From positions 1-64,000 of the forward strand of contig JAKFCT010000031.1 of NCBI GenBank assembly GCA_036676495.1: a DNA stretch of 64,000 nt, written 5' to 3'. This DNA is from Candidatus Sericytochromatia bacterium. Lineage in GTDB: Bacteria > Cyanobacteriota > Sericytochromatia > S15B-MN24 > UBA4093. Made by a program: the position numbers and the translations under genes. The notes under the pieces are model-generated. The model was not told where the DNA came from. It searched no databases and saw only the letters and a program-made list of their open reading frames with translations. Shown piece after piece: positions 22,247 to 46,552 of the stretch; position 1 is the stretch's first letter; each line of letters starts with the position of its first letter.

Positions 22247-22260
22247 GGGGCGTCCTTTCA

Positions 22261-22821: not shown

Positions 22822-23055
22822 GGTCTCCTGAGCCTGTGCTCCTGCGCTGCCCGAGCATGCGCTCCCTGGTACTATACCAAGTTCCGCTCAGGCTCTAACG
22901 AATCTGCCCATTGGTGACAAATGTCCCAGACAAGAGGAGGCGCTTCGGCGATAATCCCAACGGAAATCCAGTTGCCTTCGAGGTTTCCTGGGTTTGAGTC
23001 TCCGTCAGGCCGGGTACTTGTTGCTTGGTACCCCTCCGGTGCCTCACGGGCGCTA

Positions 23056-25052: not shown

Positions 25053-25058
25053 GTGGGA

Positions 25059-29591: not shown

Positions 29592-29621
29592 GTTTGCGCC
29601 AAATTAATCTCCGTCTGAGGG

Positions 29622-29646
29622 GTTCATGAGCCGAGCGACGGGGTAT
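29622..29646 (+). promoter_or_regulatory. SigF/SigB-type promoter of cassette 1
   Basis: GTTCA-N14-GGGTAT, conserved in the duplicated copy. Confidence 0.7.
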
Positions 29647-29699
29647 AAGGCTGATAGTCCCTCTTACGCGTGTTCGGTAAGGCGGAAAAGGAGGCCTTG

Positions 29700-32600
29700 A
29701 TGGCATTCGCACGGATCCATCCGAGACTCTCACGCCTCACGGCTTTCATCCTGATGGCCGTGCTCTCGATCGCGTTGACGGCCTGTCCGCGGCCCCTCAT
29801 GCCGCCCATGGGAGCGCCTGGAACCAGCCCTTACACCACCAACGAGCCGGATCAGGTTTCCGGCTACGTCGACTTCGGCACCCGCACCGTGCAGGCGAAC
29901 CTCGACGCCGATATCATGCCCGGCAGCACCATCGCGCTGATCGAGGTGGACACGGGCAATACGGTCAGCACGGCGAGGACCGACGAGAACGGCAAGTTCG
30001 TTCTCAAGTACTCCAACGGTTTCAAGCCGGTGCCCGGCAAGCTCTACTACTTCGAGGCCCTGAAGGGGCTTGCTGACGTTACCGGAAAGCCGAACGCGGT
30101 GGGATCCGACCTGGTCCGGGTTCGGACCATCGCCAGCTATCGTCAGGGTGGCTGGGTCAGCCTCACGAGCTCCCGCTTGGGCTTCTACATGCCTATCACC
30201 GCCATGACGACGGCGCTTTCGATCGTCGTCAGCTTGCGTTCCACCACGACCAAACCCATCGATGCGAGCACCCTTTTCGGGAGCGTCTGGCTCGGCCAGA
30301 CGACCGGCGCGTACCCGGACCGGCTGGTTTTCCCTGATACCACCCTGCTTCCCGTCACCCTGGTCCAGCAGACCTACGACCTGGTCATCGATGCCTTCCT
30401 GAAGAACCGCGATCCCATGCGCTGGGTCACCTTCGGGGACGCGGCCTTCGACAAGGTCATGCTGCCGGACGTGCCGTTCACCATCGAGCGCTATGATCCT
30501 CCCGAGCAGGTGGCCCAGGCGGAGCTTGCGATCGTGGGGACCAACTTCTCTCCGAAGTTGTCCGATCATGAGGTGGTCTTCCGGGCGGTCAACGGGACCA
30601 CCGCCGTGGCGCAGCTGGTGAGCATCAGCCCGGACCTTTCCCACCTCACCGTGAAGGTCCCGGCCGAGGCCGTCAGTGGTCCGCTCGTCCTCAGCATCGG
30701 GACGGGTGAGAACCGCAAGACCCTGACGGGCCAGACCTTCCGCTTGGCGACGCGCGACGGCCACTCCGTGGTCGACGCGCTCGGCAACACCTACGTCGTC
30801 AATTCGAGCATGGGGACGGTCGCCAAGGTCGGCCCCCTTCCCGGGGTTGGAAAGAACGGCGTCCGGTCGGTGATCACGGGCCTCGACAAGCCCGGAGCGC
30901 TGACCTTCGCGCCCGGCAACTACCGCTACCTTTACGTCGCGCTCGGCGGCAGCGCCCGCAGGGTCGTCAAGTACGATCTCGAGGCGGCCGATCCTTCCGC
31001 TTCCGGGGTGGCGTACAGCACGGGAGTCGGGGTGGCCAACCCTTCGGGTATCGCCTTCCGGACCGAGACCGGCGCACTCTACCTCACGGACGTGACGGCG
31101 GACAAGCTTTACGTGATCACCGCGGCGGGAGCCGCGGTCCAAGAGGTCACGCTGAACGCGGCCTTGAGCGGCCCGCGCGGCCTCTCGTTCGGTCCGGACC
31201 GCCGGCTCTACGTGGCGAATTCGAAAAGCGGGGATGTCGTCGCGATCACCTTGTCCAGCGCGACCACGGGGACGGTGGCGCCCTATCAGTCGGGCTTGAG
31301 CACGCCCTGGGGCGTCGCCTTCGACAACCTCAACGCCTTCTACGTCAGCAACAACAAGGGCAACTCGATCTTCAAGCAGCCCGTCGTCTCCCTGCCCGGG
31401 GTCACGCCGCTGGTCTATGGCCCCCTGACCTCGTTCGCGAGCATTCCGAACCCCGGCGGCATCGACGCGGACGCTTCCGGCTACCTCTACGTGGCCGACA
31501 ACGTCAGTAACGGCATCTACACCGTCAACCCCGACGCGGAGGCCCGGCAGATCGGGTACGGCATCAGCTACCCCGTGGCCACCTGGGCGGATGCGGACGG
31601 CCTCTTCACCCTCACCGACGAGGGGCGCATGCTGCATCTCGACGCGCAGCAGAACCTCTCCGTCTACGCCGAGGGCCTTACCGGAACCCGGGGCCTCATG
31701 CGGGACAAGCTCAAGAACTTCTACACCGTCAACACCACCCTCAAGGCCTTGATCATCGTGAGGCCCGACGGCTCGAGCATGCCGGTCACTCCGATGAATG
31801 CGCTCAATGGCTACTACCCCGAGCTCTCTATCAACAACGCCGGCGATCGCTTCTATCTCCGCAAGGCCAGCAGCGATCATCCGTCGATGGGCCAGGTCGA
31901 CGCCTTCGACCTCAACCTCAACGCCTCCGGCCTTCCCGTTCTCACCGGCGTGCCGGTCCAGGTCTTCAAATCCCCGCTGCGGAGGTTCATCGCGATCGCC
32001 GCGGATCGAACCGCTGCCGACCGGCCGGATCTGAATGCCTATCGGGGCCAGTACTACGTGCTGCAAAACAACGAGAACAACGAGCAGGCCATCTTCCGGG
32101 TCACCATGGTGAACTCCCAGACCTACGACACGGTTCGCCTGGTCGCCGGGGGGAGACTCAAGGAGCCCGTCGATATCGCGGTCGCCGAGGACGGCAAGAT
32201 CTGGGTTGCCGACCGTCAAGGGTTCGACGGCGACGGCGGCCTGATCATCTACAACCCCGACGGCACGTTCCATGACGAGATCCAAACCATCACGGATCCC
32301 CAGCGCCTTGCCTATGACCCGATCGCCAAGCGGATTGCCGCGAGCTGCTACGCCGCGAACGAAATCCACTTCTACAATGCGGCCAAGACCCGGGTGCAGC
32401 TCTTGCGGGGGATCGCGCTCCCGGTGGGGGCGGCCTTCTCCGACACCGCTCCGCATACGAAGGCGCTCTTCGTCAACTCCCACAGCACGGGACAGGTCTA
32501 TCGCTTCCTGAATTACACGGCCCTCGGGAACAAGACCTTCACCGCGGGAGAACTGTCGGCCGCCGAGTATTACTACACCGGCGCCAACAACGATATCGAG

Positions 32601-33239
32601 CTGCTGGGCAACGAGCTGCTGTATACGCACGGATCGGCCATCGGGAACGTGAAGACCGATCGCATCACGGTCAAAGAGAACTGGCAGAACCATTATTCCG
32701 GCATGCTTCGCCTCAACCGCAATCATGACGAGGGGTTGATCTCGGTTACCGACTACTCATGGGCTCATCTTCCCCATAACGGCAGCCACCAGGCTTCCTT
32801 CTCGGGGCTGCGCGCCGGCAGCAACTCCGGCAAGGGAGCGCCGATCGTGCTGAATGGCTCCATGGTCTCGTACTCGCACATCGGTTATCGGGAGTACGCC
32901 ATCATCGTCGACTCCGACTTCGACGGCAAGAATCAGCGCAGCTACCGTCCGGACTGGTACCTGGGAGCCGCGACGAGCAATGGCACGGATACCGCCTTCT
33001 TCGCCCATACCTACGGCGGCTCCATTCTCCAGTGGAAGGTGGATCCCGTGACCAAGAAAGGCGCTCCGTCCACGGTCGTGAGCGGCGGCTACAGCGGTTT
33101 CGACTTCACGCATGGGCTTGCCTACTATGACGGCTACCTTTACCAGCCCATTCGTGAAAAGCACGTGGTTCGCAAGGTGAACGTGGCGGCGAAGACCGCC
33201 GCGGAACTCAAGGTGGGCGTGGTCGCCCCGGAACTCTAG
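29700..33239 (+). CDS. Giant lipoprotein A1 (conserved N-domain, IPT/TIG, NHL-repeat propellers)
   Basis: Lipobox LTAC; IVGTNF...VKVP..AVSGPL IPT motif; many PxG(I/L)AxD..LYV repeats; AAGGAGG RBS. Confidence 0.88.
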   Translation: MAFARIHPRLSRLTAFILMAVLSIALTACPRPLMPPMGAPGTSPYTTNEPDQVSGYVDFGTRTVQANLDADIMPGSTIALIEVDTGNTVSTARTDENGKFVLKYSNGFKPVPGKLYYFEALKGLADVTGKPNAVGSDLVRVRTIASYRQGGWVSLTSSRLGFYMPITAMTTALSIVVSLRSTTTKPIDASTLFGSVWLGQTTGAYPDRLVFPDTTLLPVTLVQQTYDLVIDAFLKNRDPMRWVTFGDAAFDKVMLPDVPFTIERYDPPEQVAQAELAIVGTNFSPKLSDHEVVFRAVNGTTAVAQLVSISPDLSHLTVKVPAEAVSGPLVLSIGTGENRKTLTGQTFRLATRDGHSVVDALGNTYVVNSSMGTVAKVGPLPGVGKNGVRSVITGLDKPGALTFAPGNYRYLYVALGGSARRVVKYDLEAADPSASGVAYSTGVGVANPSGIAFRTETGALYLTDVTADKLYVITAAGAAVQEVTLNAALSGPRGLSFGPDRRLYVANSKSGDVVAITLSSATTGTVAPYQSGLSTPWGVAFDNLNAFYVSNNKGNSIFKQPVVSLPGVTPLVYGPLTSFASIPNPGGIDADASGYLYVADNVSNGIYTVNPDAEARQIGYGISYPVATWADADGLFTLTDEGRMLHLDAQQNLSVYAEGLTGTRGLMRDKLKNFYTVNTTLKALIIVRPDGSSMPVTPMNALNGYYPELSINNAGDRFYLRKASSDHPSMGQVDAFDLNLNASGLPVLTGVPVQVFKSPLRRFIAIAADRTAADRPDLNAYRGQYYVLQNNENNEQAIFRVTMVNSQTYDTVRLVAGGRLKEPVDIAVAEDGKIWVADRQGFDGDGGLIIYNPDGTFHDEIQTITDPQRLAYDPIAKRIAASCYAANEIHFYNAAKTRVQLLRGIALPVGAAFSDTAPHTKALFVNSHSTGQVYRFLNYTALGNKTFTAGELSAAEYYYTGANNDIELLGNELLYTHGSAIGNVKTDRITVKENWQNHYSGMLRLNRNHDEGLISVTDYSWAHLPHNGSHQASFSGLRAGSNSGKGAPIVLNGSMVSYSHIGYREYAIIVDSDFDGKNQRSYRPDWYLGAATSNGTDTAFFAHTYGGSILQWKVDPVTKKGAPSTVVSGGYSGFDFTHGLAYYDGYLYQPIREKHVVRKVNVAAKTAAELKVGVVAPEL

Positions 33240-33250
33240 AGGAGCTGACG

Positions 33251-36200
33251 ATGAGACGCTTGCTGGTATCAGTCTTATTTCTCTTCCTCCTCACGAGCTG
33301 CCGCCTGCCCTCGCTTCTCCCGCAGGTCATGGGGAACGGAGGGGACGCGCCCGCCGTCGGCACCGTGCATGCGCCCAACGTGCTCAAGGTCCGCATCGGG
33401 GAGTCGCTCACCCTCCAGGCCAAGCCCGAGGAAATCGCCAACGGGGCCACGATCGCGCTGGTCGACTCCGAGACCGGCGCCACCCTCGGCACCAGCATCA
33501 CCTCTCCGACCGGCGAGTTCGTCTTGACCTTCGGGGAGAACGTTTCGCTGGTGGATGGCCGCGCCTACTATCTGGATGTCATCAAGGGGCTGCGCCTCGA
33601 TACCACCAAGCCCTTGCCGCCGCCGAACGATCCGGCGAATCCCTTCAACCAGGCCGGGGCGGATGCCCTGCGGCTCCGCAACCTCCTCTTCTACCAGGCG
33701 GCGACCGCGGCGGGTCCGGCGGGTTGGAAGAGCCTTTACGACGCGACCCCCAGCAACACGGTCAACGTGGGCAACAAATCCACGGCGCTGGCCGTCGCGC
33801 TCGCCCTGAAGCAGCTCGCCGGCGAGACGATCACGCTCTCGGATTATGCGGGCGTCCTCAAGGTGGTGGAGGTGGTGGGCGGAGTGGAGCTCACCGTCAT
33901 CGAGAAGGATCCGACATGGGTCCTGGGAGGCATGGATCACAACGGGTTCATCACCGCCCGCGACGTGGTCAAGAACGCCATCGAGAGCGATCGCGATCCG
34001 CTCCAGTACACGGCTTACGATCAGACCACCAAGACCTTCCGCAGCTCGTGGGTCGGCTTCTCGATGCGGACCATCTCCCCCACGGTGGGCCCGATCAACC
34101 AGATCATCACCATCACCGGCTCGGGCTTCGAGGCCGGCGTTCCCAAGGTGGCCATCAACGGTCGTGAGATCACCGTCATCAGCCACTCGGCCGCCGAGAT
34201 CAAGGCGCGCGTCACTCCCGGCACGCGCTCGGGGCCGGTCTCCGTCCAGATCGGATCGATCCTCCTGGCGGGCAACACCTTCACCGTCGCCTTCCAGGAT
34301 GGCCACCAGGCCGTGCTGGATCGCGTGGTCGGCGGTAAGACCGTTCGCATGCTCTACGTGGCGAATCCCGCGTGGAACACGGTGGTGGAGATCGCGCCCG
34401 ACGGCTCCGTGAAAAAGCTCTGGGACGGCACGGCGGTTCCGGAGTTGAGCAATCCCCAGCAGATCGCGATCTGGAACAAGAAGCTCTACGTCTCCTGCAA
34501 CCCTGTCGGTACCGCCAATGACTTGATCCTCGAGTTGGATCCCGAGAGCCTTGGATACAAGCGGGTTCACAGCCGGGCCGTCCCCGAGCCCTTCGGGCTG
34601 GCCTTCGATACGGCCGGAGCCCTGCATGTCTCGAGCTTCCAGGATGCCGGAGCGGTCTACAAGCTGAGGGCTGACGGCACGGAGCTGACCCGCTACGCCG
34701 GCGTTCAGTATCCGCGCGGCATCGCCTTCGATTACCAGGGCAGCATCTTCGTCGCCGAGGAGCAGCGCGGCCAGATCGTCAAGCTCACCTCACCCGGCTT
34801 CGGCGCCACCGTCTGGGGCCTCGTCCCCTCACCGCTCGGCCTTGCGGTGGACTCGGCCGGCGACGTCTTCGTCGCCAGCAACGTGAACGACGCCATCTTC
34901 CGGATTTCGTCCACCCGGGCGATGTCGGTCTTCGCCATGCTCAACAAGCCGGGCGGTTTGACGTTCGACGATCGCGGCTACATGTACGTCTCGGACACCG
35001 AGAAGAACCTCGTCAACCGCATCTCGCCCTCGGGCGACGCCCGGGTCTACGCCTATGGCATCAGCAATCCGCGCGGCCTCGCCGTGGATCCGGCCAATGG
35101 CACGCTCTATGTCTCGCTCAGCCAATCCAACGCGATCCTGAAGGTGGAGGGAGGCATCCTCAAGCCCTTCGTGACGGGAATCGCCAACCCGATGACGATC
35201 TCCTTCCGAGGGAAGGGGCTCATCATCAGCCACCCCGAGACGCATACGGTTTCCTTCGCCGAGACGACCGGCAAGCTCAGCACCCTGGCGACAGGCCTGG
35301 TCTATCCCGGAGGAGCGGATCAGGCCGTGGATGGTGCGGGCAACTTGACGGGGAAACTGTACGTCGGGCGCTTCGGGGATATGGAGTCTCCCATCACGGC
35401 CCGCTATCCCTACGACTCCTATACGATCTCCGACGGGAACTACAACGGCGTCGACGTGGTCGAGAACAAGGTCCCGACGCTCCGGCGCTGGTTGTACCGG
35501 ATGAAGCTCAGCTACATCGCAGTGGATGCCTCCAAGAACATCTTCGCGATTCAGTCGAGCGACCGGACGCTAACCAAGATCTCGGTCGCACCGGGGGGCG
35601 GCAACAGTTCCCGCCGGATCCAGCGCCTCTGCGGCCCGGGCTCCGCGTATTCGTTCCCATCCGACCCGGGCTGGGTCTCGCTCGATCGTGACGGCAACGT
35701 CTACGTGGTGGTGCCTGGAGACAATGCGGTCTACCGCTTCAAACCGTCCGGCGACACCTACGTCATGAGCAAGATCACCAACTTCAACCAGCCCTGGGGC
35801 ATTGCCTTCTCGGACACGATTCCGCAGGCCATGTTCGTCTCCAACACGGGAGATGGGTTGATCCGCAAGGTCACCACCCCGGCTACCGATGCCGCGGCCC
35901 TCAGCACCACGACCTTCAACATCCCCGCGGATACCACGGTCAAGGGCCTCACCTACATGTCCACGGGCACGGCCGGTACCGGCACGCTCTACATGGCCAA
36001 CGGCACCAGCGTGATGAAGGCGAGTCTCTCCGGGAACAATTACGTCGCGGCCTCTTATGGGCCCTACTTCACCGACCTTCCGGTAGCCTGGTCCTACCTC
36101 TACGCCAAGTCAGACACCAAGGAGCTCTACGGCTGGGGCAACAGCGTCTTTTCTCATCGCCTCGTACCGGGCACTCCGCCGGTTCCCTACACCTACCGGG

Positions 36201-36670
36201 ACTACACGGGTTGGGGACGCTACTTGGGCTTCACCTTCGCCCCGGATTTCACGTACTACGCGATGGAGATGCACTACGGAGGGGTGAGCACCATGTGGTC
36301 CCAGAACACCACGCGGGAGATCTTGCTCAACGGCAATACGCTCTATGTCGCTTCGCCGGACAGCATGGGCTCAGGTGGCGTCCTGCGCATCGATCTGGCC
36401 ACGAACGAGGAGCTGTTGGTTCCGATTCAGTCGTACTCGCTGGCCCTTTACGGGACGAGTCTTTACGTCGGTGCCACCAACAACCGGATCTACGAGGTGG
36501 ATGCGGCCGGGCGGCACTATGAGCGGTGGAACATCGGAACGCTTCCGTATGGCCTGGATATCCGCGGCAATACCGTCTGGGCGGTGGGAGCCGACTCGGT
36601 CATCTACGAGCGGGTCATCGGAGGCGGGATCGCGGATCATCGCTTCGGCATGATGGGACCGGTGTTCTAA
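33251..36670 (+). CDS. Giant lipoprotein B1 (conserved N-domain, IPT/TIG, NHL-repeat propellers)
   Basis: Lipobox LTSC; ITITGSGF...TRSGPVSV IPT; NHL repeats. Confidence 0.88.
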   Translation: MRRLLVSVLFLFLLTSCRLPSLLPQVMGNGGDAPAVGTVHAPNVLKVRIGESLTLQAKPEEIANGATIALVDSETGATLGTSITSPTGEFVLTFGENVSLVDGRAYYLDVIKGLRLDTTKPLPPPNDPANPFNQAGADALRLRNLLFYQAATAAGPAGWKSLYDATPSNTVNVGNKSTALAVALALKQLAGETITLSDYAGVLKVVEVVGGVELTVIEKDPTWVLGGMDHNGFITARDVVKNAIESDRDPLQYTAYDQTTKTFRSSWVGFSMRTISPTVGPINQIITITGSGFEAGVPKVAINGREITVISHSAAEIKARVTPGTRSGPVSVQIGSILLAGNTFTVAFQDGHQAVLDRVVGGKTVRMLYVANPAWNTVVEIAPDGSVKKLWDGTAVPELSNPQQIAIWNKKLYVSCNPVGTANDLILELDPESLGYKRVHSRAVPEPFGLAFDTAGALHVSSFQDAGAVYKLRADGTELTRYAGVQYPRGIAFDYQGSIFVAEEQRGQIVKLTSPGFGATVWGLVPSPLGLAVDSAGDVFVASNVNDAIFRISSTRAMSVFAMLNKPGGLTFDDRGYMYVSDTEKNLVNRISPSGDARVYAYGISNPRGLAVDPANGTLYVSLSQSNAILKVEGGILKPFVTGIANPMTISFRGKGLIISHPETHTVSFAETTGKLSTLATGLVYPGGADQAVDGAGNLTGKLYVGRFGDMESPITARYPYDSYTISDGNYNGVDVVENKVPTLRRWLYRMKLSYIAVDASKNIFAIQSSDRTLTKISVAPGGGNSSRRIQRLCGPGSAYSFPSDPGWVSLDRDGNVYVVVPGDNAVYRFKPSGDTYVMSKITNFNQPWGIAFSDTIPQAMFVSNTGDGLIRKVTTPATDAAALSTTTFNIPADTTVKGLTYMSTGTAGTGTLYMANGTSVMKASLSGNNYVAASYGPYFTDLPVAWSYLYAKSDTKELYGWGNSVFSHRLVPGTPPVPYTYRDYTGWGRYLGFTFAPDFTYYAMEMHYGGVSTMWSQNTTREILLNGNTLYVASPDSMGSGGVLRIDLATNEELLVPIQSYSLALYGTSLYVGATNNRIYEVDAAGRHYERWNIGTLPYGLDIRGNTVWAVGADSVIYERVIGGGIADHRFGMMGPVF

Positions 36671-37032
36671 TGATGGGTAGAAGACCAATGATGACTGGAA
36701 GACACTTGCCGCAGCTCGTGATCGTGGGCGTGATGGCCTTGACCATGATGATCGGCTGCGCGGGAGAGGAGGACTTGCTCGGATCCAACGGGGCTGCCCG
36801 GAGGTCGCCGCCGCCGACGTCCGAAGCCACTCCGACTCCCACTCCGACTCCGGCTGTAACGGCGACCCCGGCTCCGACCCCGAGCCCCTCGTCGGCAGCC
36901 AGCGTGGCGCCATCGGACGATCCGACCTTGAACCCGCTGCCGTCCGCCCCCCAGGAATGGCCGTCGAGCGACCCCGTTCCCAGTGCTTCCCCCGAGGAGG
37001 GCTCGGATTACCCCGATCCCGAGATCCCTTGA
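36670..37032 (+). CDS. Small Thr/Pro-rich lipoprotein C1
   Basis: MIGC-AGEEDLLG then TPTPTP; TAATG overlap with B1; several possible ATGs. Confidence 0.7.
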   Translation: MMGRRPMMTGRHLPQLVIVGVMALTMMIGCAGEEDLLGSNGAARRSPPPTSEATPTPTPTPAVTATPAPTPSPSSAASVAPSDDPTLNPLPSAPQEWPSSDPVPSASPEEGSDYPDPEIP

Positions 37033-37055
37033 GACCTGGCGTGAAAGAGGAACCT

Positions 37056-37244
37056 ATGAAACCCTTGCTTCCTATTTTTGTGTTGATCGTGGCGGGCGCC
37101 CTGGCCTTTGGTGCGGGCTGCGCGGAGGATGGCGACCTCTTCGGGGTCGGAAACAGGAACGGTGGCAACACCACCAACCCCACGCCCACGCCCACCCCCT
37201 CCGCATCGCCTTCGGGCACGGGCGGTAACGTCATCAACGACTAA
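37056..37244 (+). CDS. Small Thr/Pro-rich lipoprotein D
   Basis: AGC-AEDGDLFG then PTPTPT; AGAGGA RBS. Confidence 0.7.
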   Translation: MKPLLPIFVLIVAGALAFGAGCAEDGDLFGVGNRNGGNTTNPTPTPTPSASPSGTGGNVIND

Positions 37245-37261
37245 CCTCGTGGCTTGTCGAA

Positions 37262-37300
37262 AGGCCCAGGCCGTTCCGCGATCCGGAACGGCCTGGGCCT
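37262..37300. terminator. Strong hairpin at end of cassette 1
   Basis: AGGCCCAGGCCGTTCCG-CGATC-CGGAACGGCCTGGGCCT; no T tail. Confidence 0.6.
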
Positions 37301-37360
37301 CGACGTGCGGGGGCTCGGGGGGGCCTTTCAGGAACGCGGCGCCCAACAGGAAGACGCCCA

Positions 37361-37449
37361 TTGATGCCAAGCGCAGGATCAGTCGCCGCATGCCCAGCGT
37401 GCCCGAGGTGATCCACGCGCGGGGTTGCGGTGGATCTGTCGGCGACTGA
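37361..37449 (+). pseudogene. Decayed copy of the pilB 3' end (duplication scar)
   Basis: DAKRRISRRMPSVPEVIHARGCGGSVGD* versus PilB DAKRKIIRRMTNVPEVIRVLGYGGPDGY*. Confidence 0.85.
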
Positions 37450-37479
37450 GTTTACGCCAAAACAATCTCTACATAAGGA

Positions 37480-37504
37480 GTTCATGGGCCGAGCAACGGG
37501 GTAT
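37480..37504 (+). promoter_or_regulatory. SigF/SigB-type promoter of cassette 2
   Basis: GTTCA-N14-GGGTAT. Confidence 0.7.
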
Positions 37505-37557
37505 AAGGCTGATAGCCCCCCTTACGCTTGCACGGTAAGGTGGAAAAGGAGGCCTTG

Positions 37558-40500
37558 ATGGCTTTCGCTAGGATTCATTCGAGACTTTCACGCTTCGCGG
37601 CCTTCATCCTGATGGCCGTGCTCACGATCGCGTTGACCGCCTGTCCGCGACCGCTCACGCCGCCCATGGGAACGCCCGCTCCTGGAACGCTCACGGGATC
37701 GGAGGCCGATCAGGTCGTCGGCCACGTCGATTTCGGAGGCCGCAGCACCCAGGCCACCATCGAAGACAACATCATGCCGGGCAGCACCATCTCGCTGATC
37801 GAGGTGGAGACGGGCGATACCGTCAGCACGGCGCGCTCCGACGCGAACGGCAAGTTCGTCCTCAAGTACTCCAACGGCTTCAAGCCGGTACATGGCAAGC
37901 TCTACTACTTCGAGGCGATCAAGGGCCTCGACGCGGGATCGGGCAACTATAACGCGGTGGGCGCCGATCTGGTCCGCGTCCGAACCATCGCCACGTATCG
38001 CAACGGGGGGGGCTGGCTCAGCCTGACGAGCGATCGCTTCGGCTTCTATATGCCGATCACTCCCATGACCACGGCCGTGTCGATCGTGGTCAGCCTGCGC
38101 TCTTCGACCAACCGCAAGATCGACGCGAGCACCCTTTTCGGCAGCGTCCGGCTGGGGCAGTCGAACGGCAAGTACCCCGACACCCTGGTCTTCCCGGATA
38201 CGGCCCTCTTCCCCGTCACCCTGGCTCAGGGCGCTTATAACCTGGTCATGGATGCCTTTGCCAAGGAGCGCGATCCGATGCGCTGGATCCAGCTCGCGGG
38301 CGGGGACGCGCAGTTCAACACGGTCGAGTTGCCGGACGTGCCGTTCACCCTGCTGGGCATCGCTCCTCCTGCCCAGGTTCCCCTCCAGCTCGTCTCGCTG
38401 GTGGGCACCAACTATGAAGGCGAGGTCGAGGTCCACTTCCAGCGCGATGGTGGCGGCACGGTGGCGGCGCAAGGTCCGAACGGTGGAGCACCTGAAATCA
38501 GTCCGGATCGGACGCGAATCACCGTCCGCGTTCCGGCCAACGCGATCAACGGGCGGCTCGAGCTCAAGATTCGTCCCAATTCGACCAGTCCCTGGCGAAC
38601 GCTCATCAGCGCGCAGGACTTCCTGCTCGCGACCATGGACGGGCATAGTGTCGTCGATCTCGCGGGGCGGGTCTATGCCGCCAATGTGGGCCTGGGCACG
38701 ATCGTGCGCCTTCAGCCCACGGGCCAGGACGATCGGCTGGAGGTCGCCACCTTGATCTCGGGGCTCGACAAGCCCAGCGCCCTGACGTTCGCTCCCGGCA
38801 CCCTGCGGCCGGAGACCTCGTTCGATCCGATCTCGTACGATTACCTCTTCGTCGGCCTGGGCGGCACGACGCGCCAGATCGTGGAATACGACCTGCGCGG
38901 GGCCACGCCGGTCGCCACTCCCTACCATGCGGGGGTCGGGGTGGCGAACCCCTCAGGTATCGCCTTCGCGCCCTCCAAGGCGCTCTACGTGACCGACGCG
39001 GATGCCGGCAAGCTCTACGTCATCCCGAGTCGCGGAGCGGAGGTCGCCGAGGTCACGCTTCAGGGCGAGGCCCTCAACAAACCGCGCGGGATCGCCTTCG
39101 GCCCGAACGGCCGCATGTACGTGGCCAATTCGGGGGCCAATACGGTCCTCGAGATCGACCTGACGAAGACTCCGCCACTTGCCAAGAAGCATGTCTTGGG
39201 TTTGAGCACGCCGTGGGGCGTGGCCTTCGATCCCAAGGGCAACTTCTACATGAGCAACAACCAGGGGAACTCGATCTACCGGGTTCCGGTGACCTCTTTG
39301 CCGGGAGCTCCGCTGACCTACGGGGCCCTCGAGGCTTTCTCGGCGGTGCCGACGCCCGCCGGCATCGATGCCGACGCGTCCGGCTACCTCTACGCGGCCG
39401 ACCGCACCACCAACGGCATTTACCGCATCAACTCGAACGCCGAGGGCCGGCAGGTCGGCATCGGCATCAGCTACCCGGTGGCGACCTGGGCCGGGCCCGG
39501 CCCGAATGCCGGCGATCGCGAGATCTACGCCCTCACGGACGAAGGGCGCCTGATGAAAATCACGCGCCCCCAGAATGGGCCGTCCGCACTCTCGGTCTTC
39601 GCGGAGGGGCTCAGGTCCTCGCGTGGTCTGACCCGTGACGCGGCGGGCAACTTCTTCACGCATCGCCGGGCTGCCAAGGCCCTCACCAAGATCTATCCCG
39701 ACGGGACGACGGCAGACCTTCTCGGCTCCTTGGACGCTTACTACCTGGCCTCTCCGGTGGTCCGGGGGACCCAGATCTTCTTCCGCACCGCGAACGGTTC
39801 GCTGTCACCGGCGGATCTCCATGGGTACAACCTCGGCCCGCCCATCGGCGCCGCTCCGGCCGTGTCCTATCAGGCGTTGATGCGCGGCGTCGTGGCCGTG
39901 GCCGTGGACCGGAGCGGGCGGGTCAACAACGGCAAGTACTTCCTCCTCCAGAACAATGAGGTGCCCAAGAACCTCATCCTGAAAGTGACGCGCTTCAGCG
40001 GCGAGCGGGCCGAGACGGTGCCGTTCCTGACGGCGGCGGCCCTCAACCGGGTCACGACTCCCGTGGACATCGCCGTCGACGGAGCCGGCCAGGTCTGGGT
40101 GGCCGATGCGGCGGGCAAGGTCGTGGTTTTCAATGAGAACGGCGCCTACGTGGGAGAGGTGGCGGTTCCCAATCCGGTTCGCCTGACCTACAACGACACG
40201 CATATCGTCGTGAGCAACTATCAGGCGGCAGGAGACGTGCGCTTCTACACCACGGCCCGGGGCCTCGCCAAGACCCTGAGCGGCTTGGGCTATCCCGTGG
40301 GAGTCTCCTTCGAGGGGACCAACATGTACGTGAATACGCATGACGACGGCTGGGTCTATCGGGTCGCCAACTACGCGGGCCTTCCCACCAAGGCGCTGAC
40401 GGCGGGAGATCGCGTGCAGTTCTACCAGATTGGAGGGCAGAACGACATCGAGGTGATCGGCGGAAACCTCTACTTCACGTATGTTGCGGGCTACGGCAAC

Positions 40501-41094
40501 ATCCGCATGTGGAACGGGAAGACGCTTGAAACCTCCTGGCGCTCGCACTATTACCCGATCTCGCGCCTGACTCAGGACGGGAGCAAAAGGATGGCCTACG
40601 TCTCGTCCGCAAGCTGGGTGCATCATCAGGACGATGGGTTCTATACCGGCTTCACGGGGAGCCTCTCGCAGCTCACGTACCGGGGAGACTACGGTGAATC
40701 CGTCGCCCCCGTGGCGTTCACCCCTTATTCGTGGATCTCCTACAACCGCATGGGGGCCTGGACGCAAGCCGTGGAGACCTACTTCGACGGCTCCAAGGAA
40801 CGAAGCTTCAAGTACTACGGCGGAGGCGACTACGGCTCGGTCGTGGCCGGCAACGACGGGACCATCTACATTCCCACGTTGACCGGCGGAGCCATCTTCA
40901 AGTGGACGGCGGACGGCTATAGCGTCCTGACGCCGAGCATCTACACGGGCGGGATCGATCACGTCTGGGGCCTGGCCTTCTACGACAACAAGCTCTACCA
41001 GCCGGTGCGGGAGCGGCATCTGGTACGGGAAGTCGACACGCTGACCGGGGTGGCGAGCGTCATGCCGGTTGGTCTGGTCGCACCGGAGCTCTAG
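37558..41094 (+). CDS. Giant lipoprotein A2 (paralog of A1)
   Basis: Near-identical N-terminus to A1, same architecture, ends GLVAPEL. Confidence 0.88.
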   Translation: MAFARIHSRLSRFAAFILMAVLTIALTACPRPLTPPMGTPAPGTLTGSEADQVVGHVDFGGRSTQATIEDNIMPGSTISLIEVETGDTVSTARSDANGKFVLKYSNGFKPVHGKLYYFEAIKGLDAGSGNYNAVGADLVRVRTIATYRNGGGWLSLTSDRFGFYMPITPMTTAVSIVVSLRSSTNRKIDASTLFGSVRLGQSNGKYPDTLVFPDTALFPVTLAQGAYNLVMDAFAKERDPMRWIQLAGGDAQFNTVELPDVPFTLLGIAPPAQVPLQLVSLVGTNYEGEVEVHFQRDGGGTVAAQGPNGGAPEISPDRTRITVRVPANAINGRLELKIRPNSTSPWRTLISAQDFLLATMDGHSVVDLAGRVYAANVGLGTIVRLQPTGQDDRLEVATLISGLDKPSALTFAPGTLRPETSFDPISYDYLFVGLGGTTRQIVEYDLRGATPVATPYHAGVGVANPSGIAFAPSKALYVTDADAGKLYVIPSRGAEVAEVTLQGEALNKPRGIAFGPNGRMYVANSGANTVLEIDLTKTPPLAKKHVLGLSTPWGVAFDPKGNFYMSNNQGNSIYRVPVTSLPGAPLTYGALEAFSAVPTPAGIDADASGYLYAADRTTNGIYRINSNAEGRQVGIGISYPVATWAGPGPNAGDREIYALTDEGRLMKITRPQNGPSALSVFAEGLRSSRGLTRDAAGNFFTHRRAAKALTKIYPDGTTADLLGSLDAYYLASPVVRGTQIFFRTANGSLSPADLHGYNLGPPIGAAPAVSYQALMRGVVAVAVDRSGRVNNGKYFLLQNNEVPKNLILKVTRFSGERAETVPFLTAAALNRVTTPVDIAVDGAGQVWVADAAGKVVVFNENGAYVGEVAVPNPVRLTYNDTHIVVSNYQAAGDVRFYTTARGLAKTLSGLGYPVGVSFEGTNMYVNTHDDGWVYRVANYAGLPTKALTAGDRVQFYQIGGQNDIEVIGGNLYFTYVAGYGNIRMWNGKTLETSWRSHYYPISRLTQDGSKRMAYVSSASWVHHQDDGFYTGFTGSLSQLTYRGDYGESVAPVAFTPYSWISYNRMGAWTQAVETYFDGSKERSFKYYGGGDYGSVVAGNDGTIYIPTLTGGAIFKWTADGYSVLTPSIYTGGIDHVWGLAFYDNKLYQPVRERHLVREVDTLTGVASVMPVGLVAPEL

Positions 41095-41106
41095 AGGAGG
41101 ATGGAC

Positions 41107-44100
41107 ATGCGCCGCTTTTTGATTCCGATCCTCCTGATCTTCGTGCTCGCGAGCTGTCGCATGCCCTCGATCGTGCCGCAGATCCCCGCGGGCACGGTCG
41201 ATTCGGGGGCGCCCGTGGCACGCCCGGAATCGGCCCTCAAGGTCCGGCTCGTTCGCGACCCCCAAATTCAAGCGATCTTCGAGGAGTTCACCGCAGGGGC
41301 GACCATCGCCTTGATTGATACGGAGACCGGCCTGACGCTCGGCACGAGCGTTACCACGCCGGAAGGCTCGTTCATCTTGAATTTCGGTCCGGACTTCAAT
41401 CCTGTCGACGGCCGGCTTTACTACCTCGATCTCTTCAAGGGATTGCAGGTTCAGCCCGACGGCCAGTTCAACCAGGCGGGCGCCGATGCGCTTCGCCTTC
41501 GCAACGTGCTCTGCTACGACGCGGCGACCTCGGGTTGGACCAGCCTCATGAACGGGACGCCGAGCAATTCCGTCGACATCGGCAACAAGTCCACGGCCCT
41601 CAGCATCGCACTGGCCCTCAAGCGTCAGGCGGGAGAGCTGGTCGATTTCAAACAGTACCTCGGCGTCGTGCCGTACCCCAACGATTATCCGGCGGCAGGC
41701 GTCGGCACGCTCGAGAAGAGCAAGTTCGATCAGGCTTACGCGGCGGTCATCGAGGCGATCGCCAAGGACTCCGATCCCCTGCAGTACCTGGTCTATGACA
41801 AGATCACCGGGACTTACTTCGGATCCCTGGTCCTGTTCTCCCTCTCGGACATCTTCTTGAAAGGCACCGACGCCACCCCCGTTCGCGAGGGCAAGATCGA
41901 CGACCGGGTGATCATCACGGGCGCCGGCTTCGGTCCGGGGGCCCAGTTCCGGCTCAACGGCAAGCTGCTCTCGATCGTCGGCTCCATCGCGGCGACCCGC
42001 GTCGAGGTCCAGATTCCTCCCGGCACCCGCACGGGACCGGTCTCGATCGAGCAGGAGGGCAAGACCCAGTTCGGCAAGACCTTCACCATCAAGGCCGACG
42101 ACGGACATCGCGCGATCCTCAACGGCAAGCTCTATGTCGCCAGTCCGACGTGGCACTCCATCTCCGAGGTCGATCAAAACGGCGTCGTGAAGACCCTCTG
42201 GGACAAGGTCCGGGACGGCATTCCCGAGCTGGACTCTCCGCGGCAGGTGGCGGTCCGCGGAGGCATGATCTACGTGACCACCAGCAGCTACGTCCTGCGC
42301 TTCAATCCGGCCCAGCCCAAGGTGAGGGACGCGTTCGCGATCGCCGTCACGGATCCTTACGGCATGGCGTTCGACCTGGCGGGCAACCTCTACGTGACCA
42401 GCCGCAGCGCGGGCACGATCATCAAGCACAATGCCGCCGGGACGCCGCTCCAAACCTTCGCGGGCTTCAACCGGCCAATCGCCATGGCCTTCAACTATCA
42501 GGGCCGGCTCTTCGTCGTGGAGGAAGGCGGTGGCATCCGCCGCGTGACCTTCACACCGACCTATGCCAACGAGGCCTGGGGCTTTGCTTCCAAGCCCCTG
42601 GGGATCGCGGTCGACTCGGCCGGCGATCAGTTCGTCACGAGCAACGACAATGACGTCATCTTCCGGATCTCCCATACCGGGTTCCCGTCGGTCTTCGCCG
42701 CGATCAACAAGCCGGGAGGCCTGAGCTTCGATGACGAGGGCAACCTCTTCGTCTCGGATACCGGGCGCAACCTCATCAGCCGCCTCTCGCCCTCCGGGAA
42801 CAGCAAGGTCATCGCCTACGGCATCTCCGTGCCGCGCGGCATCGCCGTGGACCCTGCGAGCCCCCGCACCCTCTACGTCAGCCTCGGCCAATCGAACGCC
42901 ATCCTGAGGGTGACGCCGGATACCGGCGCGCTGGCTCCCTTCGTCACCGGAATTGCCAACCCCATGTCCCTGAATTTCCGGGGGCAGGGCATGTTCATCG
43001 CGCACCCGGAAACCGGAACGATCTCCTATGCGCGTACCAGCGGCGAGATGGAGACGGTCGCCACGGGGATCCTCTACCCCGGCGGCGCCGATCAGCAGGT
43101 CGTCGGCGGCGTCCGTACCGGCAATCTCTACGCGGGCCGCTTTGGGGACGTGGAGGGGGCCACCACGCCGCGCCTCCCGAACTTCGCCATTCGCGCGCTC
43201 GCGTTCGGCGATCACTACGGCTTGGAGACCTTCAATAACGGCACCCGCGTGGAAGCGCGCCAATGGCTTTACCACCAGCAGGTGCAAAGCGTCGCCGTCG
43301 ACTCCGAGGGCAACATCTTCATGGTCAACCAGGCCGAGAAGTCGCTGACCATGTTCACCAAGTTCGTCGAGACCACCGGCACGAAGTACGCACGCCTGAG
43401 TCGCCACCTGGCGGGTCCCAGGGCGGCCAACGCCGCCGCGCGCTTCACGGGAACTCCCGGCCAGGTCGTGCTGGATCCCCTTGGGAACGCCTACGTGACC
43501 GTGCCGAGCGAGAACGCGGTCTACCGCTTCAACAAGGCGCGCGGCTACGCCATGGAGAAGATCACGGGCTTCGCCAATCCGCGCGGGATCGCCTTCTCCG
43601 ACACCACGGCGCCGGTCGTCATGTTCGTCTCGAACGCCGGGGACGCGGGTCGGATTTACCGCGTCACCAACGCCGATCAGGCGGCGGTCGTCCAGAAGGA
43701 TGGCGCCTTCGCCGTCGCCATCGATCCCAACGTCGAGGGTATCGCCTACATGCCCAGCGGGACCCTGGGCACCGGCACCCTCTACATCTCCAACAACAAC
43801 CCGGCCAACGACCCGGACGGCGATCCGGAAACGGCCGAGTACCAGCTCGACAAGGTGAGCATCGCGGGCAACAACGCCTCCGGAGGACGCGTGAACGTCT
43901 TCAAGTACCTGCCCCGTCCCTGGAAGTACATCTTCGCCCACCCGGCCACGGGAATGCTCTACGGGTACATCAACGTCTCGTTCGTCGACAAGATCAACCC
44001 CACGACGCTGGCTTTCGACAACCACCGGGACGGCACGGGCTCGGGGGTCTATGAAGGCTACTTCATGAGCTTCTCCGGCGCCAGCTACACGGAGTGGAAC

Positions 44101-44568
44101 GGCTACCGCTACAACGGCGGGCTTCATAACTGGTCCAACGGCGCCTACAACCTCTCCCCCATGACGACGACCCGCGAACTGGAGCTCGATCCCGGACGCT
44201 ACCTCTACGTGGCCTCCCCCGAGAACGAGATCGGTGAAGGCGGCGTCCTGCGCATCAACCTCACCAACAACGAGGAGCTCTACTTGCGGCTGCGGGCCTA
44301 CTCCCTCGGCCGTGACACCTCGACCGACTTGCTGTACATCGGGGCCTACGACTCGGGTATCTACCGGATGGAGCCCAGCGGCAGAACGACGCTGATCTGG
44401 ACGGTTCCGGGGGGAAGGCCCTTCGGGCTCGACGTCTACACCAATGCCGGCGCGCCCGCCAACTCCCGGGTCTGGGCGGCGGCGGAGGATTCGACCCTCT
44501 TCGAGGCGGCAATCCAGGCCGGCACGACGGCCACCCATCGCGTAGGAATGAAAGGTCCGGTCTTCTGA
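41107..44568 (+). CDS. Giant lipoprotein B2 (paralog of B1)
   Basis: Lipobox LASC; FNQAGADALRLRN shared with B1; ends GMKGPVF; alternative ATG at 41101. Confidence 0.88.
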   Translation: MRRFLIPILLIFVLASCRMPSIVPQIPAGTVDSGAPVARPESALKVRLVRDPQIQAIFEEFTAGATIALIDTETGLTLGTSVTTPEGSFILNFGPDFNPVDGRLYYLDLFKGLQVQPDGQFNQAGADALRLRNVLCYDAATSGWTSLMNGTPSNSVDIGNKSTALSIALALKRQAGELVDFKQYLGVVPYPNDYPAAGVGTLEKSKFDQAYAAVIEAIAKDSDPLQYLVYDKITGTYFGSLVLFSLSDIFLKGTDATPVREGKIDDRVIITGAGFGPGAQFRLNGKLLSIVGSIAATRVEVQIPPGTRTGPVSIEQEGKTQFGKTFTIKADDGHRAILNGKLYVASPTWHSISEVDQNGVVKTLWDKVRDGIPELDSPRQVAVRGGMIYVTTSSYVLRFNPAQPKVRDAFAIAVTDPYGMAFDLAGNLYVTSRSAGTIIKHNAAGTPLQTFAGFNRPIAMAFNYQGRLFVVEEGGGIRRVTFTPTYANEAWGFASKPLGIAVDSAGDQFVTSNDNDVIFRISHTGFPSVFAAINKPGGLSFDDEGNLFVSDTGRNLISRLSPSGNSKVIAYGISVPRGIAVDPASPRTLYVSLGQSNAILRVTPDTGALAPFVTGIANPMSLNFRGQGMFIAHPETGTISYARTSGEMETVATGILYPGGADQQVVGGVRTGNLYAGRFGDVEGATTPRLPNFAIRALAFGDHYGLETFNNGTRVEARQWLYHQQVQSVAVDSEGNIFMVNQAEKSLTMFTKFVETTGTKYARLSRHLAGPRAANAAARFTGTPGQVVLDPLGNAYVTVPSENAVYRFNKARGYAMEKITGFANPRGIAFSDTTAPVVMFVSNAGDAGRIYRVTNADQAAVVQKDGAFAVAIDPNVEGIAYMPSGTLGTGTLYISNNNPANDPDGDPETAEYQLDKVSIAGNNASGGRVNVFKYLPRPWKYIFAHPATGMLYGYINVSFVDKINPTTLAFDNHRDGTGSGVYEGYFMSFSGASYTEWNGYRYNGGLHNWSNGAYNLSPMTTTRELELDPGRYLYVASPENEIGEGGVLRINLTNNEELYLRLRAYSLGRDTSTDLLYIGAYDSGIYRMEPSGRTTLIWTVPGGRPFGLDVYTNAGAPANSRVWAAAEDSTLFEAAIQAGTTATHRVGMKGPVF

Positions 44569-44906
44569 TGCCTGGACGGTTTACCAGCAAGCTCTCCTTG
44601 GTCGCCCTCTTCGTCGCCACCATGGCCATGGGGTGCGCCGGCAACGATGAGGATCTCTTTGGAGCCAGCGGGCGGGTGACCTCTCGTCCTACTGCGGAAG
44701 CGACGCCCACCCCGACCCCGACGCCGACCCCCACTCCGACCCCGACCCCGACGGCCACGAAGACTCCCTCCCCCACTCCCTCTCCGGAGGCCACGCCGGA
44801 CGAGGAGGCCACGCCGGAGCCCCGCGAGAGCATCGTTCACCTCGAATCCCCGGGGCCTGGGTATTCCCCTCCCCCAGAAGCCAGCGGATCGCTCGACGGG
44901 AACTGA
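44568..44906 (+). CDS. Small Thr/Pro-rich lipoprotein C2
   Basis: AMGC-AGNDEDLFG then (TP)n; TGATG overlap with B2. Confidence 0.75.
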   Translation: MPGRFTSKLSLVALFVATMAMGCAGNDEDLFGASGRVTSRPTAEATPTPTPTPTPTPTPTPTATKTPSPTPSPEATPDEEATPEPRESIVHLESPGPGYSPPPEASGSLDGN

Positions 44907-44986
44907 GGATCGGCTAGGCCGCCGGCGGCTTCCGAACGCGGGGCGTACCCACCCGGAAACGACGTCGGCGGTGGGGCCAAGAACGA

Positions 44987-45658
44987 CTAGGGGTTGCGCA
45001 GCGCGACGCTCGTGCGCACGTAGCGCGGAGCGGATTCGGGGGTCGGCCGGATCACCAGGGTGATCTCGACCCGGCGGATCTGGCTCAGGAGGATCGTGGG
45101 CTCCCCCGCCGCCGTCAGGTACGTGAAGATCGGAACCGGGCCGTTCGTCGTCCCCTTGCCGCCTCTTAGCTGCAGCGGAATGCCGTCCGGGTTATGGTTC
45201 TGGATCAGGCGATCCGCGCTGAGGGTCATGGGCCCCTCCCCGGTGTCGAGCCCGGGGGCGCCCACCAGGCCGGCTCCCGCGTGCCCGGATCCCGACGGCA
45301 AAGCTCCCGCCCCGGCGGACGACCCTTCGATGACGAGTTGCAAGGGGCGGACCCACGGATTGGACGGATCGGCCGGCGCCTGCGAGATTTCCCGGATCGT
45401 CGCCCCGTCGTCGGAGATTGACGTGTAGCGGATCGTGCCGCTCCCCGCCAAGGTGAGGGTCTTGAGGTTGGCGAGCTCCCGGCTGACCATCGAGAGCGGG
45501 CGCATCGCCTCCTGGGGGCCCTTGGCCTCTCCGAGCACGACGTAGACCGTCTCCTGCTGGCTCCGGAACAACATGAAGAGCCCCGCCATGAAGCTCGAGA
45601 TGAGGGTCAAGGCGAGCGCCGTCTCCAGGATCGTCAGGCCCTTCTCATGCTTTCGCAT
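44987..45658 (-). CDS. Minor pilin (PilW/GspJ-like)
   Basis: G|LTILE motif; C-terminal IRRVEITL...VALRN typical of this class. Confidence 0.8.
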   Translation of the reverse strand: MRKHEKGLTILETALALTLISSFMAGLFMLFRSQQETVYVVLGEAKGPQEAMRPLSMVSRELANLKTLTLAGSGTIRYTSISDDGATIREISQAPADPSNPWVRPLQLVIEGSSAGAGALPSGSGHAGAGLVGAPGLDTGEGPMTLSADRLIQNHNPDGIPLQLRGGKGTTNGPVPIFTYLTAAGEPTILLSQIRRVEITLVIRPTPESAPRYVRTSVALRNP

Positions 45659-46089
45659 CAGAGCCCTCCCTTGGCGACGGGGCCGGTGACCTTGTCGAGC
45701 TCCAGCGAGCCCGCCAGGACCTCCGGGGCCCCGGGAGCCTGATAGGTCACCTCGATGGTGTAATCGACCTTGCGGAAGCCGTTCTGCGCGGGAGGAAGGC
45801 CGTTCCGCACGACCCGGACCGAGTAGGTCGCGCCGGCCACGCCCAGCGGAGCGAGACGGACGGTTTCCGGGGGAGGGTCGATCGGGTTCGCGCGAACCGT
45901 CTCGGCCGCATCGCGAAGCAACTGCTCGACGATCTCGGGATGCTGAACGATCCCCGACTCCGCCGGCGAGACGCTCGCCGCCATGGTCCGGGTCAGCTGC
46001 GTGATGGCCATGACCCCCATCATCAGGACGAGGATGGAGAGCATCGCCTCCAGCAGCGAGACGCCCTTCTGCGCGCTACTTCTGTTCAT
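45658..46089 (-). CDS. Minor pilin (PilV/GspI-like)
   Basis: G|VSLLE motif, short. Confidence 0.8.
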   Translation of the reverse strand: MNRSSAQKGVSLLEAMLSILVLMMGVMAITQLTRTMAASVSPAESGIVQHPEIVEQLLRDAAETVRANPIDPPPETVRLAPLGVAGATYSVRVVRNGLPPAQNGFRKVDYTIEVTYQAPGAPEVLAGSLELDKVTGPVAKGGL

Positions 46090-46552
46090 AGCGCTGAAGC
46101 ACCCAGGCGGAGCCCGAGGCGACGTCGAAGCGGAGGGTTCGGGTGATCGGGCCCCAGCCGGTATTGCCTCCGACGGGCACGGCCTCGCCCGTGACCTCGT
46201 AGCGGAAGACGCCGGGGGTGACGGGATCGAGGGCCACGATCCGGTACCCGACGCGCTGCGTGACCGTGACTCCGGGGTAGGCGATCGTGCGCTCCCAGGT
46301 GGCCGGGGGCGGGATCTCCGGGATCGCGTCCCGGACGGGCTTGATGTTGTTCTGGTACATCAGCGCGTTGATCCCCTTCTCCGCCGCATAGAGCGCCTGG
46401 GCGGTCGGGTAGCCCGCGAACCGGAGTTCGGCGCCCGCGGAGGTCTGCTGGCGCAGGAACTTGGCCGCCCCGAGGCTCAGCACGGTCATACCCGTGACCA
46501 GCGCCGTGGCGATGAGCAGCGTATTGCCGCGTTCGGAGGCGTGACGTTCCAT
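46076..46552 (-). CDS. Minor pilin (PilX/GspK-like)
   Basis: RG|NTLLI lacking Glu5; QALYAAEKG PilX-like motif. Confidence 0.8.
   Translation of the reverse strand: MERHASERGNTLLIATALVTGMTVLSLGAAKFLRQQTSAGAELRFAGYPTAQALYAAEKGINALMYQNNIKPVRDAIPEIPPPATWERTIAYPGVTVTQRVGYRIVALDPVTPGVFRYEVTGEAVPVGGNTGWGPITRTLRFDVASGSAWVLQRYEQK

Follow-up and report, generated by a model that had tools for sequence, protein, structure and literature searches.

A stretch of 64,000 nucleotides from a Candidatus Sericytochromatia bacterium (assembly GCA_036676495.1, contig JAKFCT010000031.1, positions 1 to 64,000; hereafter the window) contains two tandem cassettes of lipoprotein genes, A1-B1-C1-D and A2-B2-C2, located between the gene of a PilB/GspE-type ATPase and a triad of minor-pilin genes. 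This layout, proposed in a preliminary description of the window, is confirmed here. We consider, at a probability of roughly 55%, that the cassettes represent a lineage-restricted three-gene A-B-C lipoprotein module, which would form a hetero-oligomer in the cell envelope and would not belong to the components of the neighboring filament machine. As judged from comparison with relatives, the A/B pair has evidently been inherited and duplicated as a unit. In the genus of the window genome, designated g1, the cassettes have, by all appearances, been inserted between the ATPase gene and the triad and then amplified in place, and their linkage to the pilus genes is best read as a genus-level insertion.

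Each of the seven cassette products has an N-terminal signal peptide with a lipobox at its end; in the giant proteins this lipobox reads LTAC (A1 and A2), LTSC (B1) or LASC (B2). Coding frames were chosen by third-position G+C, the window having a G+C content of 65%, and the starts of A1 and A2 were placed at the ATG that follows AAGGAGG; the longest open reading frames (ORFs) begin 30 nt upstream of these starts. The lipobox pattern was matched in 35 of 37 family members. One of the two misses is cut at its 5' end by the end of the locus, and the other reads LVAC, which is not covered by the pattern used. The lipobox cysteine (Cys29) is nearly invariant in the family alignment. The residues following it differ with protein type, PRPL..PP being found in A-type and [RK]LPS..P in B-type proteins. 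With both a signal peptide and a lipobox cysteine in place, A and B are predicted to be acylated. Collectively, the lipoboxes, Pfam matches, structure model and profile comparisons bear out the description of A and B as giant lipoproteins with a common N-terminal module, an IPT domain and about 800 aa of NHL-type blades.

The N-terminal module of approximately 320 aa is composed of a transthyretin/CarboxypepD_reg-like sandwich, a helical part and the IPT domain. An AlphaFold2 model of A1 residues 29-348, built from 39 aligned sequences, reached a pLDDT of 88.9 and a pTM of 0.79. Its residues 24-138 (model numbering) fold as a beta-sandwich, 140-214 are helical, and 233-319 make up the IPT part. 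Model residues 229-320 superpose on IPT domains with Z scores of 10-13.5; the best fold matches are 3hrp (Z 13.5) and 3tc9 (Z 13.4), over 85 residues each, and 3kya and 4hw6 were also retrieved. The TIG family (PF01833) exceeds its cut-off in B1 only (39.9 bits vs 20.9), and the IPT domain of A1 is assigned from the model. For the sandwich, CarboxypepD_reg matches were obtained in 21 of 39 members at E <= 1, the best of them (E 1.3e-4) lying below the cut-off. A profile of module residues 1-228 gave no sequence match in the PDB at E <= 10, and the fold searches with the module model were filled by IPT matches. PADLOC and PHROGs returned generic propeller-repeat matches only.

The NHL family (PF01436, gathering cut-off 20 bits) is matched above its cut-off by all four giants, with 49.8 bits for A1, 43.3 for B1, 39.7 for A2 and 26.8 for B2. 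The first propeller of B1 matches the six-bladed NHL propeller of the PknD sensor (1rwi, E 1.2e-23) and the designed 'Pizza' proteins (E values down to 4e-34). PknD carries a single propeller on a transmembrane kinase, whereas A/B bear several of them on the stalk of a lipoprotein. In profile comparison, A1 residues 640-1179 align to the first propeller in several registers, with a probability of 99.9. This region should therefore consist of further NHL-like blades, and the estimate of about 800 aa of blades stands; its feature-based neighbors are NHL proteins as well.

Overall identity is 49.6% between A1 and A2 and 47.2% between B1 and B2, and A and B share 26-29% in pairwise and 20-22% in multiple alignments. 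The paralogs had been described as highly similar in their N-terminal part and as diverging towards the C-terminus. This gradient is present in A1/A2 (71-79% identity over residues 1-250, 23-39% beyond residue 650) but only weakly so in B1/B2, where the N-terminus has 47-63% identity, the first propeller 56-67% and the C-terminus 31-53%. Windowed identity places the most variable part of A/B in the distal blades, so that the proposed variability of these proteins holds. The extreme C-termini are conserved by type across genera, with GL..(P/A)E(L/M) in A and G(L/M)..P.F in B (for instance at 33213-33236 and 36644-36667). These type-specific ends may close the propeller fold as a last strand, or they may act as a signal for sorting or assembly.

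That A and B act as a pair was part of the preliminary description, and they do behave as an obligate pair: a B-type gene lies directly downstream of A, on the same strand, in 20 of the 20 A-type genes examined, and for the pairs with an ORF call for each gene the gap ranges from -4 to 12 nt. At A1-B1 and A2-B2 alike the junction carries the motif CTCTAGAGGAG, and the one-base overlap of B and C recurs in both cassettes, as TAATG and TGATG. A maximum-likelihood tree of 37 members resolves an A clade (18), a B clade (16) and a third clade (3), the A and B subtrees being mirrored. The distance matrices of A and B are strongly correlated (Mantel r = 0.969 over 14 pairs, a value not attained in any of 10000 label permutations), also when the seven g1 pairs are taken separately (r = 0.964, reached by 6 of 5040). 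As far as sequence distances can tell, this mirroring shows co-duplication and an equal pace of change rather than contact. Between G000, the genome with the window, and G002, a second genome of the same genus, orthologs of A1 and B1 share 61% and 64% identity; the corresponding figures are 80-92% in the machine core and 49-67% in the pilins. Such a pace of divergence of the giants fits exposed envelope proteins.

The small lipoproteins C1, C2 and D consist of a lipobox (MIGC in C1, GAGC in D, AMGC in C2), the acidic C-A-G/E-[DE]..-L-[LF]-G motif and a tail rich in Pro and Thr, and nothing more. The motif reads C-AGEEDLLG in C1, C-AEDGDLFG in D and C-AGNDEDLFG in C2, where a (TP)n tail follows. 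D has an ortholog in G002 with 60% identity. A C-type lipoprotein gene follows B, at -1 to +13 nt from its stop, in 11 of 17 A-B pairs (genomes G000, G002, G003, G008 and G020), and in one further pair it lies upstream of A; the 17 pairs come from a scan of 19 rows, of which L036:7730 and L015:15971, having no upstream A gene, were left out.

Upstream of A2, 120 nt from the 3' end of the ATPase gene recur as a relic, and a 108-nt duplicate of the A1 leader comes next; by blastn, relic and leader together align at 82% identity over 216 nt. Apart from the gene itself and the relic, G000 has no copy of this segment, and in G002 the relic is absent. The leaders of A1 and A2, together with the 5' coding DNA, are 70-88% identical. 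The A1 leader shares just 41-51% with that of its ortholog in G002; as a whole protein, A1 nevertheless groups with this ortholog. The ATPase relic and the duplicated leader thereby point clearly to a tandem duplication or gene conversion in place at A2, of a unit that apparently began inside the ATPase gene. Between the cassettes, the DNA following D could form a hairpin with a minimum free energy of -52.8 kcal/mol (76-nt stretch, z = -5.4), a value matched by 0 of 200 shuffled sequences. The leaders have no Rfam family match at E <= 1; the one Rfam match overall, IRES_Bip (E 0.64) inside the A2 gene, is at chance level. A scan for promoters and terminators revealed no excess over shuffled sequences.

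Alternatively, A and B could be periplasm-facing lipoprotein enzymes with their NHL propellers as catalysts of lactonase or lyase type, forming a two-subunit enzyme that acts on an envelope or imported substrate. Weak matches to the SGL/gluconolactonase, Vgb_lyase and arylesterase families, and feature-based neighbors named SMP-30/gluconolactonase-like, are in line with this idea. However, these family matches lie below the Pfam cut-offs, and NHL blades match one another generically. Furthermore, three tandem propellers on a stalk, the fast distal divergence and the expansion of the array, to six pairs in G002, better fit binding modules than housekeeping enzymes, and no conserved catalytic constellation was identified, although no rigorous test for one was made. 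We regard an enzymatic role as improbable.

To define the range of the family, the 228-aa module was used as a profile. Of 301 genomes sampled from the whole phylum, 28 were matched, and these belong without exception to the class Sericytochromatia, with 9/9 genomes in family f1, 8/8 in f4, 5/6 in f7, 3/13 in f6, 1/1 in f5, 1/8 in f3 and none in the others. Full-length A/B matches were found in f1 and f4. A locus search with the A-type alignment gave six loci, from Sericytochromatia records except for one from Stenomitos. The full N-terminal profile was also run against protein representatives; multi-IPT proteins dominate there and 3 of the 150 listed matches span the module, and this search was not used for the range. 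Within G000, the six module genes comprise the four in this locus and two singletons in unrelated contexts (contigs C62 and C19). The neighboring machine, recognizable by its PilM-PilN fusion, is present, with 35-48% identity, in all f1 genomes and in seven of eight f4 genomes and, more distantly, in f3. Its gene order is kept in 10 fetched relatives, and the position of the triad genes beside the ATPase gene is likewise conserved in relatives. The two distributions do not coincide: at least six of the eight f3 genomes have the fused machine and one has the module, whereas none of three f7 genomes searched for PilM-PilN has the fused machine.

Within the genus g1, the locus itself varies. In G001, which belongs to g1 like G002 and is 97% complete, the ATPase gene is followed by the triad and then by genes for a C11 peptidase, L19, a response regulator and TamB, with no A/B in between; no A/B pair was found anywhere in this assembly. 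The G001 genome carries three module genes (350, 860 and 1005 aa) with other C-termini and with IPT as their only Pfam match (L033, G001:C44, 7591-14257); they lie in the same filament locus, flanked by a pilin gene on one side and by the platform gene on the other, and the locus is partly inverted relative to the window. In G002, the same locus holds six A-B pairs and two other module genes (L013-L016, G002:C101), and this array spans from the ATPase gene to the C11 peptidase gene with the triad in its middle. The orthologs of A1-B1-C1-D are found there on the far side of the triad, that of A1 being divergently transcribed from it.

Outside the genus, the fetched machine loci of seven relatives (G004, G005, G008, G012, G016, G018 and G020) contain no A/B or module gene; their A-B pairs are on other contigs or, in G008, about 90-110 kb away. 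For six further genomes (G006, G007, G009, G014, G024 and G026), the listed module matches are off the machine contig, as judged from contig assignment alone. In G003, a third-clade pair is situated about 14 kb downstream of the ATPase gene. The triad genes recognized in G003, G004, G005 and G008 stand beside the ATPase gene with no A/B adjoining, and in the first three of these the triad is followed by glycogen-metabolism genes (GH57, DUF4912), with no propeller protein. No gene family besides A/B recurs in the neighborhoods of the pairs in other genera, and no TonB-dependent transporter was seen beside A-B pairs. A pilus-linked reading of A/B is only partly supported. The claim that A/B belong to this filament machine, or replace PilY1 in it, is not supported, in view of the absence of A/B from G001, the unlinked pairs of the seven relatives and the mismatch in f3 and f7.

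In the preliminary description, A/B were seen as variable adhesin or target-recognition complexes displayed or secreted by this machine; as adhesins at the pilus tip, they would dock on the minor-pilin triad in place of a PilY1-type propeller. PilY1/PilC is, like A/B, a large beta-propeller protein encoded near minor-pilin genes, and the cassettes do lie between the ATPase gene and the triad. In G002, the A1 ortholog and the triad are divergently transcribed. It was also correct that no PilY1 is recognizable in the window, and this extends to the genome, which is 92% complete and in which PF05567 has no match at E <= 1. Nor is PF05567 among the Pfam matches of A1, B1, A2 and B2 at E <= 0.01. 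However, A and B are lipoproteins, and an acyl anchor is ill-suited to a filament tip. The conservation of the gene beside a minor-pilin operon, which characterizes PilY1, is not found for A/B: the triad adjoins the ATPase gene without them in G001, they are missing beside it in G003, G004, G005 and G008, and the side of the triad on which the cassettes lie is not the same in G000 as in G002. The premise that such a triad needs a PilY1-type propeller also fails in this phylum, since PilY1/PilC is described as generally lacking in cyanobacteria (PMC13759059). A role of A/B at the filament tip is thereby very improbable, and the least likely of the readings considered. In our literature search, no paper linked Sericytochromatia and pili in substance.

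The machine itself comprises, in one locus, the core of a type IV filament system (T2SSE, T2SSF, secretin and prepilins), and it is one of several filament systems in G000. Its assignment to a type II secretion system (T2SS) or to type IVa pili is not straightforward. The equivalog models of the two systems score closely and every one remains below its cut-off; on the ATPase, for instance, the PilB and GspE models are nearly equal. In PDB profile comparisons, the PilM-PilN fusion matches PilM and not GspL, and the pilin profile matches type IV pilus (T4P) pilins at 4.8e-9 vs 0.3 for GspG. A GspG-like nature of the pilins, suggested by the resemblance of their SPWGG motif to GspG, is not backed by this profile search. 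No retraction ATPase gene was detected among the Pfam and equivalog matches of the machine locus. A c-di-GMP-binding motif of the MshE type is present in the ATPase (NF053729 scores 54.1 bits vs a cut-off of 38), and c-di-GMP may therefore switch the filament machine.

Genes for PulA and SslE lie in or beside the locus of their secretion machine. A comparable arrangement could exist here, with the machine acting in a T2SS-like manner to move acylated A/B, and C, across the outer membrane; the A/B/C genes would then simply happen to nest in the machine locus in g1. T2SS-dependent surface lipoproteins such as PulA and InvL are established: they are surface-anchored after secretin-dependent export and have a Gly/Ser- or Asn/Asp-rich sorting motif directly behind the lipobox (PMC12802150). 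PulA and InvL are large acylated proteins, as A/B are predicted to be. The C-type lipoproteins, with Gly and acidic residues directly after the cysteine, loosely resemble this motif. Further points in favor are the missing retraction ATPase gene, the GspF and GspD models, which slightly outscore those of PilC and PilQ, and the clustering of module genes in the locus of all three g1 genomes, at two positions. On the other hand, A/B carry Pro and basic residues after the cysteine, not Gly/Asp, and have no homology to PulA or InvL. The machine is not assignable to the T2SS, with a PilM-type fusion, a T4P-type pilin profile and all T2SS equivalogs below their cut-offs. Moreover, linkage is limited to one genus: the machine of G001 has no A/B, those of the seven relatives have neither A/B nor module, G003 has only its distant third-clade pair, and module and machine are mismatched in f3 and f7. 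We consider such cargo export possible but unlikely.

A related proposal is that the sandwich-plus-helical module of about 230 aa serves as the recognition or handling domain through which a non-canonical type IV filament machine brings acylated proteins to the cell surface, a machine that has a PilM-PilN fusion and an ATPase sensing c-di-GMP but lacks a retraction ATPase. The A-B-C cassettes nested in its locus would then encode its dedicated and diversifying cargo, an array for surface recognition, and the acidic motif of C-type proteins would be a sorting signal. It is, in our estimation, a quite doubtful scenario.

Two observations weigh against the lipoprotein-module reading that we favor. 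The mirrored trees partly reflect shared ancestry and co-duplication, and binding of A to B is not proven by them. In addition, most module genes of g1 lie inside the filament locus, that is four of six in G000, at least two of three in G001 and most in G002, at two positions. Simple chance would lead one to expect less clustering than this, and it could stem from a functional connection with the machine.

Under the favored reading, each cassette would deliver two paralogous giants from tightly coupled genes, usually together with one small lipoprotein. Each giant would be built from an acylated cysteine, a Pro-rich linker, a class-specific stalk module and about 17-18 NHL-type blades. We infer that A and B assemble into an envelope-anchored hetero-oligomer. 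This complex would most likely face outward, because of the divergence rate and by analogy with the IPT-NHL lipoproteins of Bacteroides; the conserved stalk would hold the head away from the membrane, and the fast-evolving distal blades would act as a variable binding surface for a changing ligand.

The Bacteroides proteins (3hrp; 3tc9, BT_3476, 'auxiliary nutrient binding protein'; 3kya; 4hw6) are surface lipoproteins and resemble A/B in that an NHL propeller follows immediately on their IPT domain. The IPT domain of A1 superposes on those of 3hrp and 3tc9 with a root-mean-square deviation of 1.6-1.9 over 85 residues at 21-25% identity, and 3kya gives a weak sequence match across the IPT domain and the start of the propeller (E 8.5e-4). 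The Bacteroides IPT-NHL proteins have about 400-500 aa and a single propeller, and are solitary beside SusC/D-type transporters. Unlike them, A/B carry an additional class-specific sandwich-plus-helical module and approximately three propellers' worth of blades, and they occur as co-duplicating pairs with a third small lipoprotein and with no TonB-dependent transporter seen alongside.

The features of the cassettes and of the adjacent filament locus are listed in the table.

Table. Cassette features and neighboring filament genes in the window
Feature	Positions	Strand	Remarks
A1 leader	29592-29699	+	includes the AAGGAGG ribosome-binding site; 82-88% DNA identity to 37450-37557
A1, A-type lipoprotein, 1179 aa	29700-33239	+	N-terminal module and ~830 aa of NHL-type blades behind an LTAC lipobox and a Pro-rich linker
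B1, lipoprotein, paralog of A with the same architecture, 1139 aa	33251-36670	+	start 11 nt past the A1 stop
C1, small lipoprotein, 120 aa	36670-37032	+	1-nt overlap with the B1 stop
D, small lipoprotein of C1-like type, 62 aa	37056-37244	+	
Hairpin 3' of D	37263-37299	+	perfect 16-bp GC-rich stem, terminator-like, without T run
Relic of the ATPase gene 3' end	37330-37449	+	stop codon included; aligns to 29472-29591
A2 leader	37450-37557	+	copy of the A1 leader
A2, A-type lipoprotein, 1178 aa	37558-41094	+	
B2, B-type lipoprotein, 1155 aa	41101-44568	+	start 6 nt past the A2 stop
C2, small lipoprotein, 112 aa	44568-44906	+	1-nt overlap with the B2 stop
PilB/GspE-type ATPase with N-terminal MshE-type c-di-GMP-binding domain	27810-29591	+	PF00437 425 bits, MshEN 41.5 bits
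Minor-pilin triad	44987-46552	-	N_methyl and PilV matches weak, below cut-offs
Pilin-like genes	17281-17829, 21689-22261, 22261-22821	-	
Fourth pilin-like gene, 147 aa	24609-25052	+	GMSLLEV... and APWGGW; between the platform and PilM-PilN genes
ABC-2 protein	18572-19333	-	
Lipoprotein	19338-20000	-	
Secretin	19861-21546	-	PF00263 134 bits
Platform protein	22921-24612	+	PF00482 169 bits
PilM-PilN fusion	25053-26687	+	PilM_2 and PilN
Protein with weak T2SSC-like C-terminus	26684-27805	+	

Within the triad, the product of 44987-45658 has Glu5, that of 45658-46089 is PilV-like, and that of 46076-46552 looks like a cap subunit, because its Glu5 is missing. The four pilin-like genes have an SPWGG/APWGG motif in common. 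The fourth of them is masked by a longer spurious ORF, and its orthologs occupy the same place in relatives. Directly after the triad comes a gene for a clostripain-family (C11) peptidase (46598-48352, minus strand), which adjoins the triad in all three g1 genomes at 62-63% identity and is not found there in other genera. Over the whole of G000, T2SSE-family ATPases give nine matches and secretins seven, and platform matches are spread over five contigs; contigs with such matches are C30, C38, C46, C48, C60, C91 and C102, an unusually rich set for a genome of 4.1 Mb. The window further encodes an ABC exporter fused to a cyclic-nucleotide-binding domain (5473-7947, minus strand), a SET-domain protein (7886-8557) and a protein with two cNMP-binding domains (62350-63558, plus strand).

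Sericytochromatia are uncultured, non-photosynthetic relatives of cyanobacteria whose envelope biology is essentially unknown. The analysis defines a lipoprotein module restricted to the class and, across the order, a family of giant lipoprotein pairs that duplicate together. The idea of a new pilus adhesin system, tempting but on weak foundations, is set aside by it. If the export reading were true, lipoprotein secretion by type IV filament machines would extend beyond Proteobacteria. The family offers targets for metaproteomics, structure prediction and heterologous expression, and the giant lipoprotein pairs are probably a major constituent of the cell envelope in these organisms, and a variable one.

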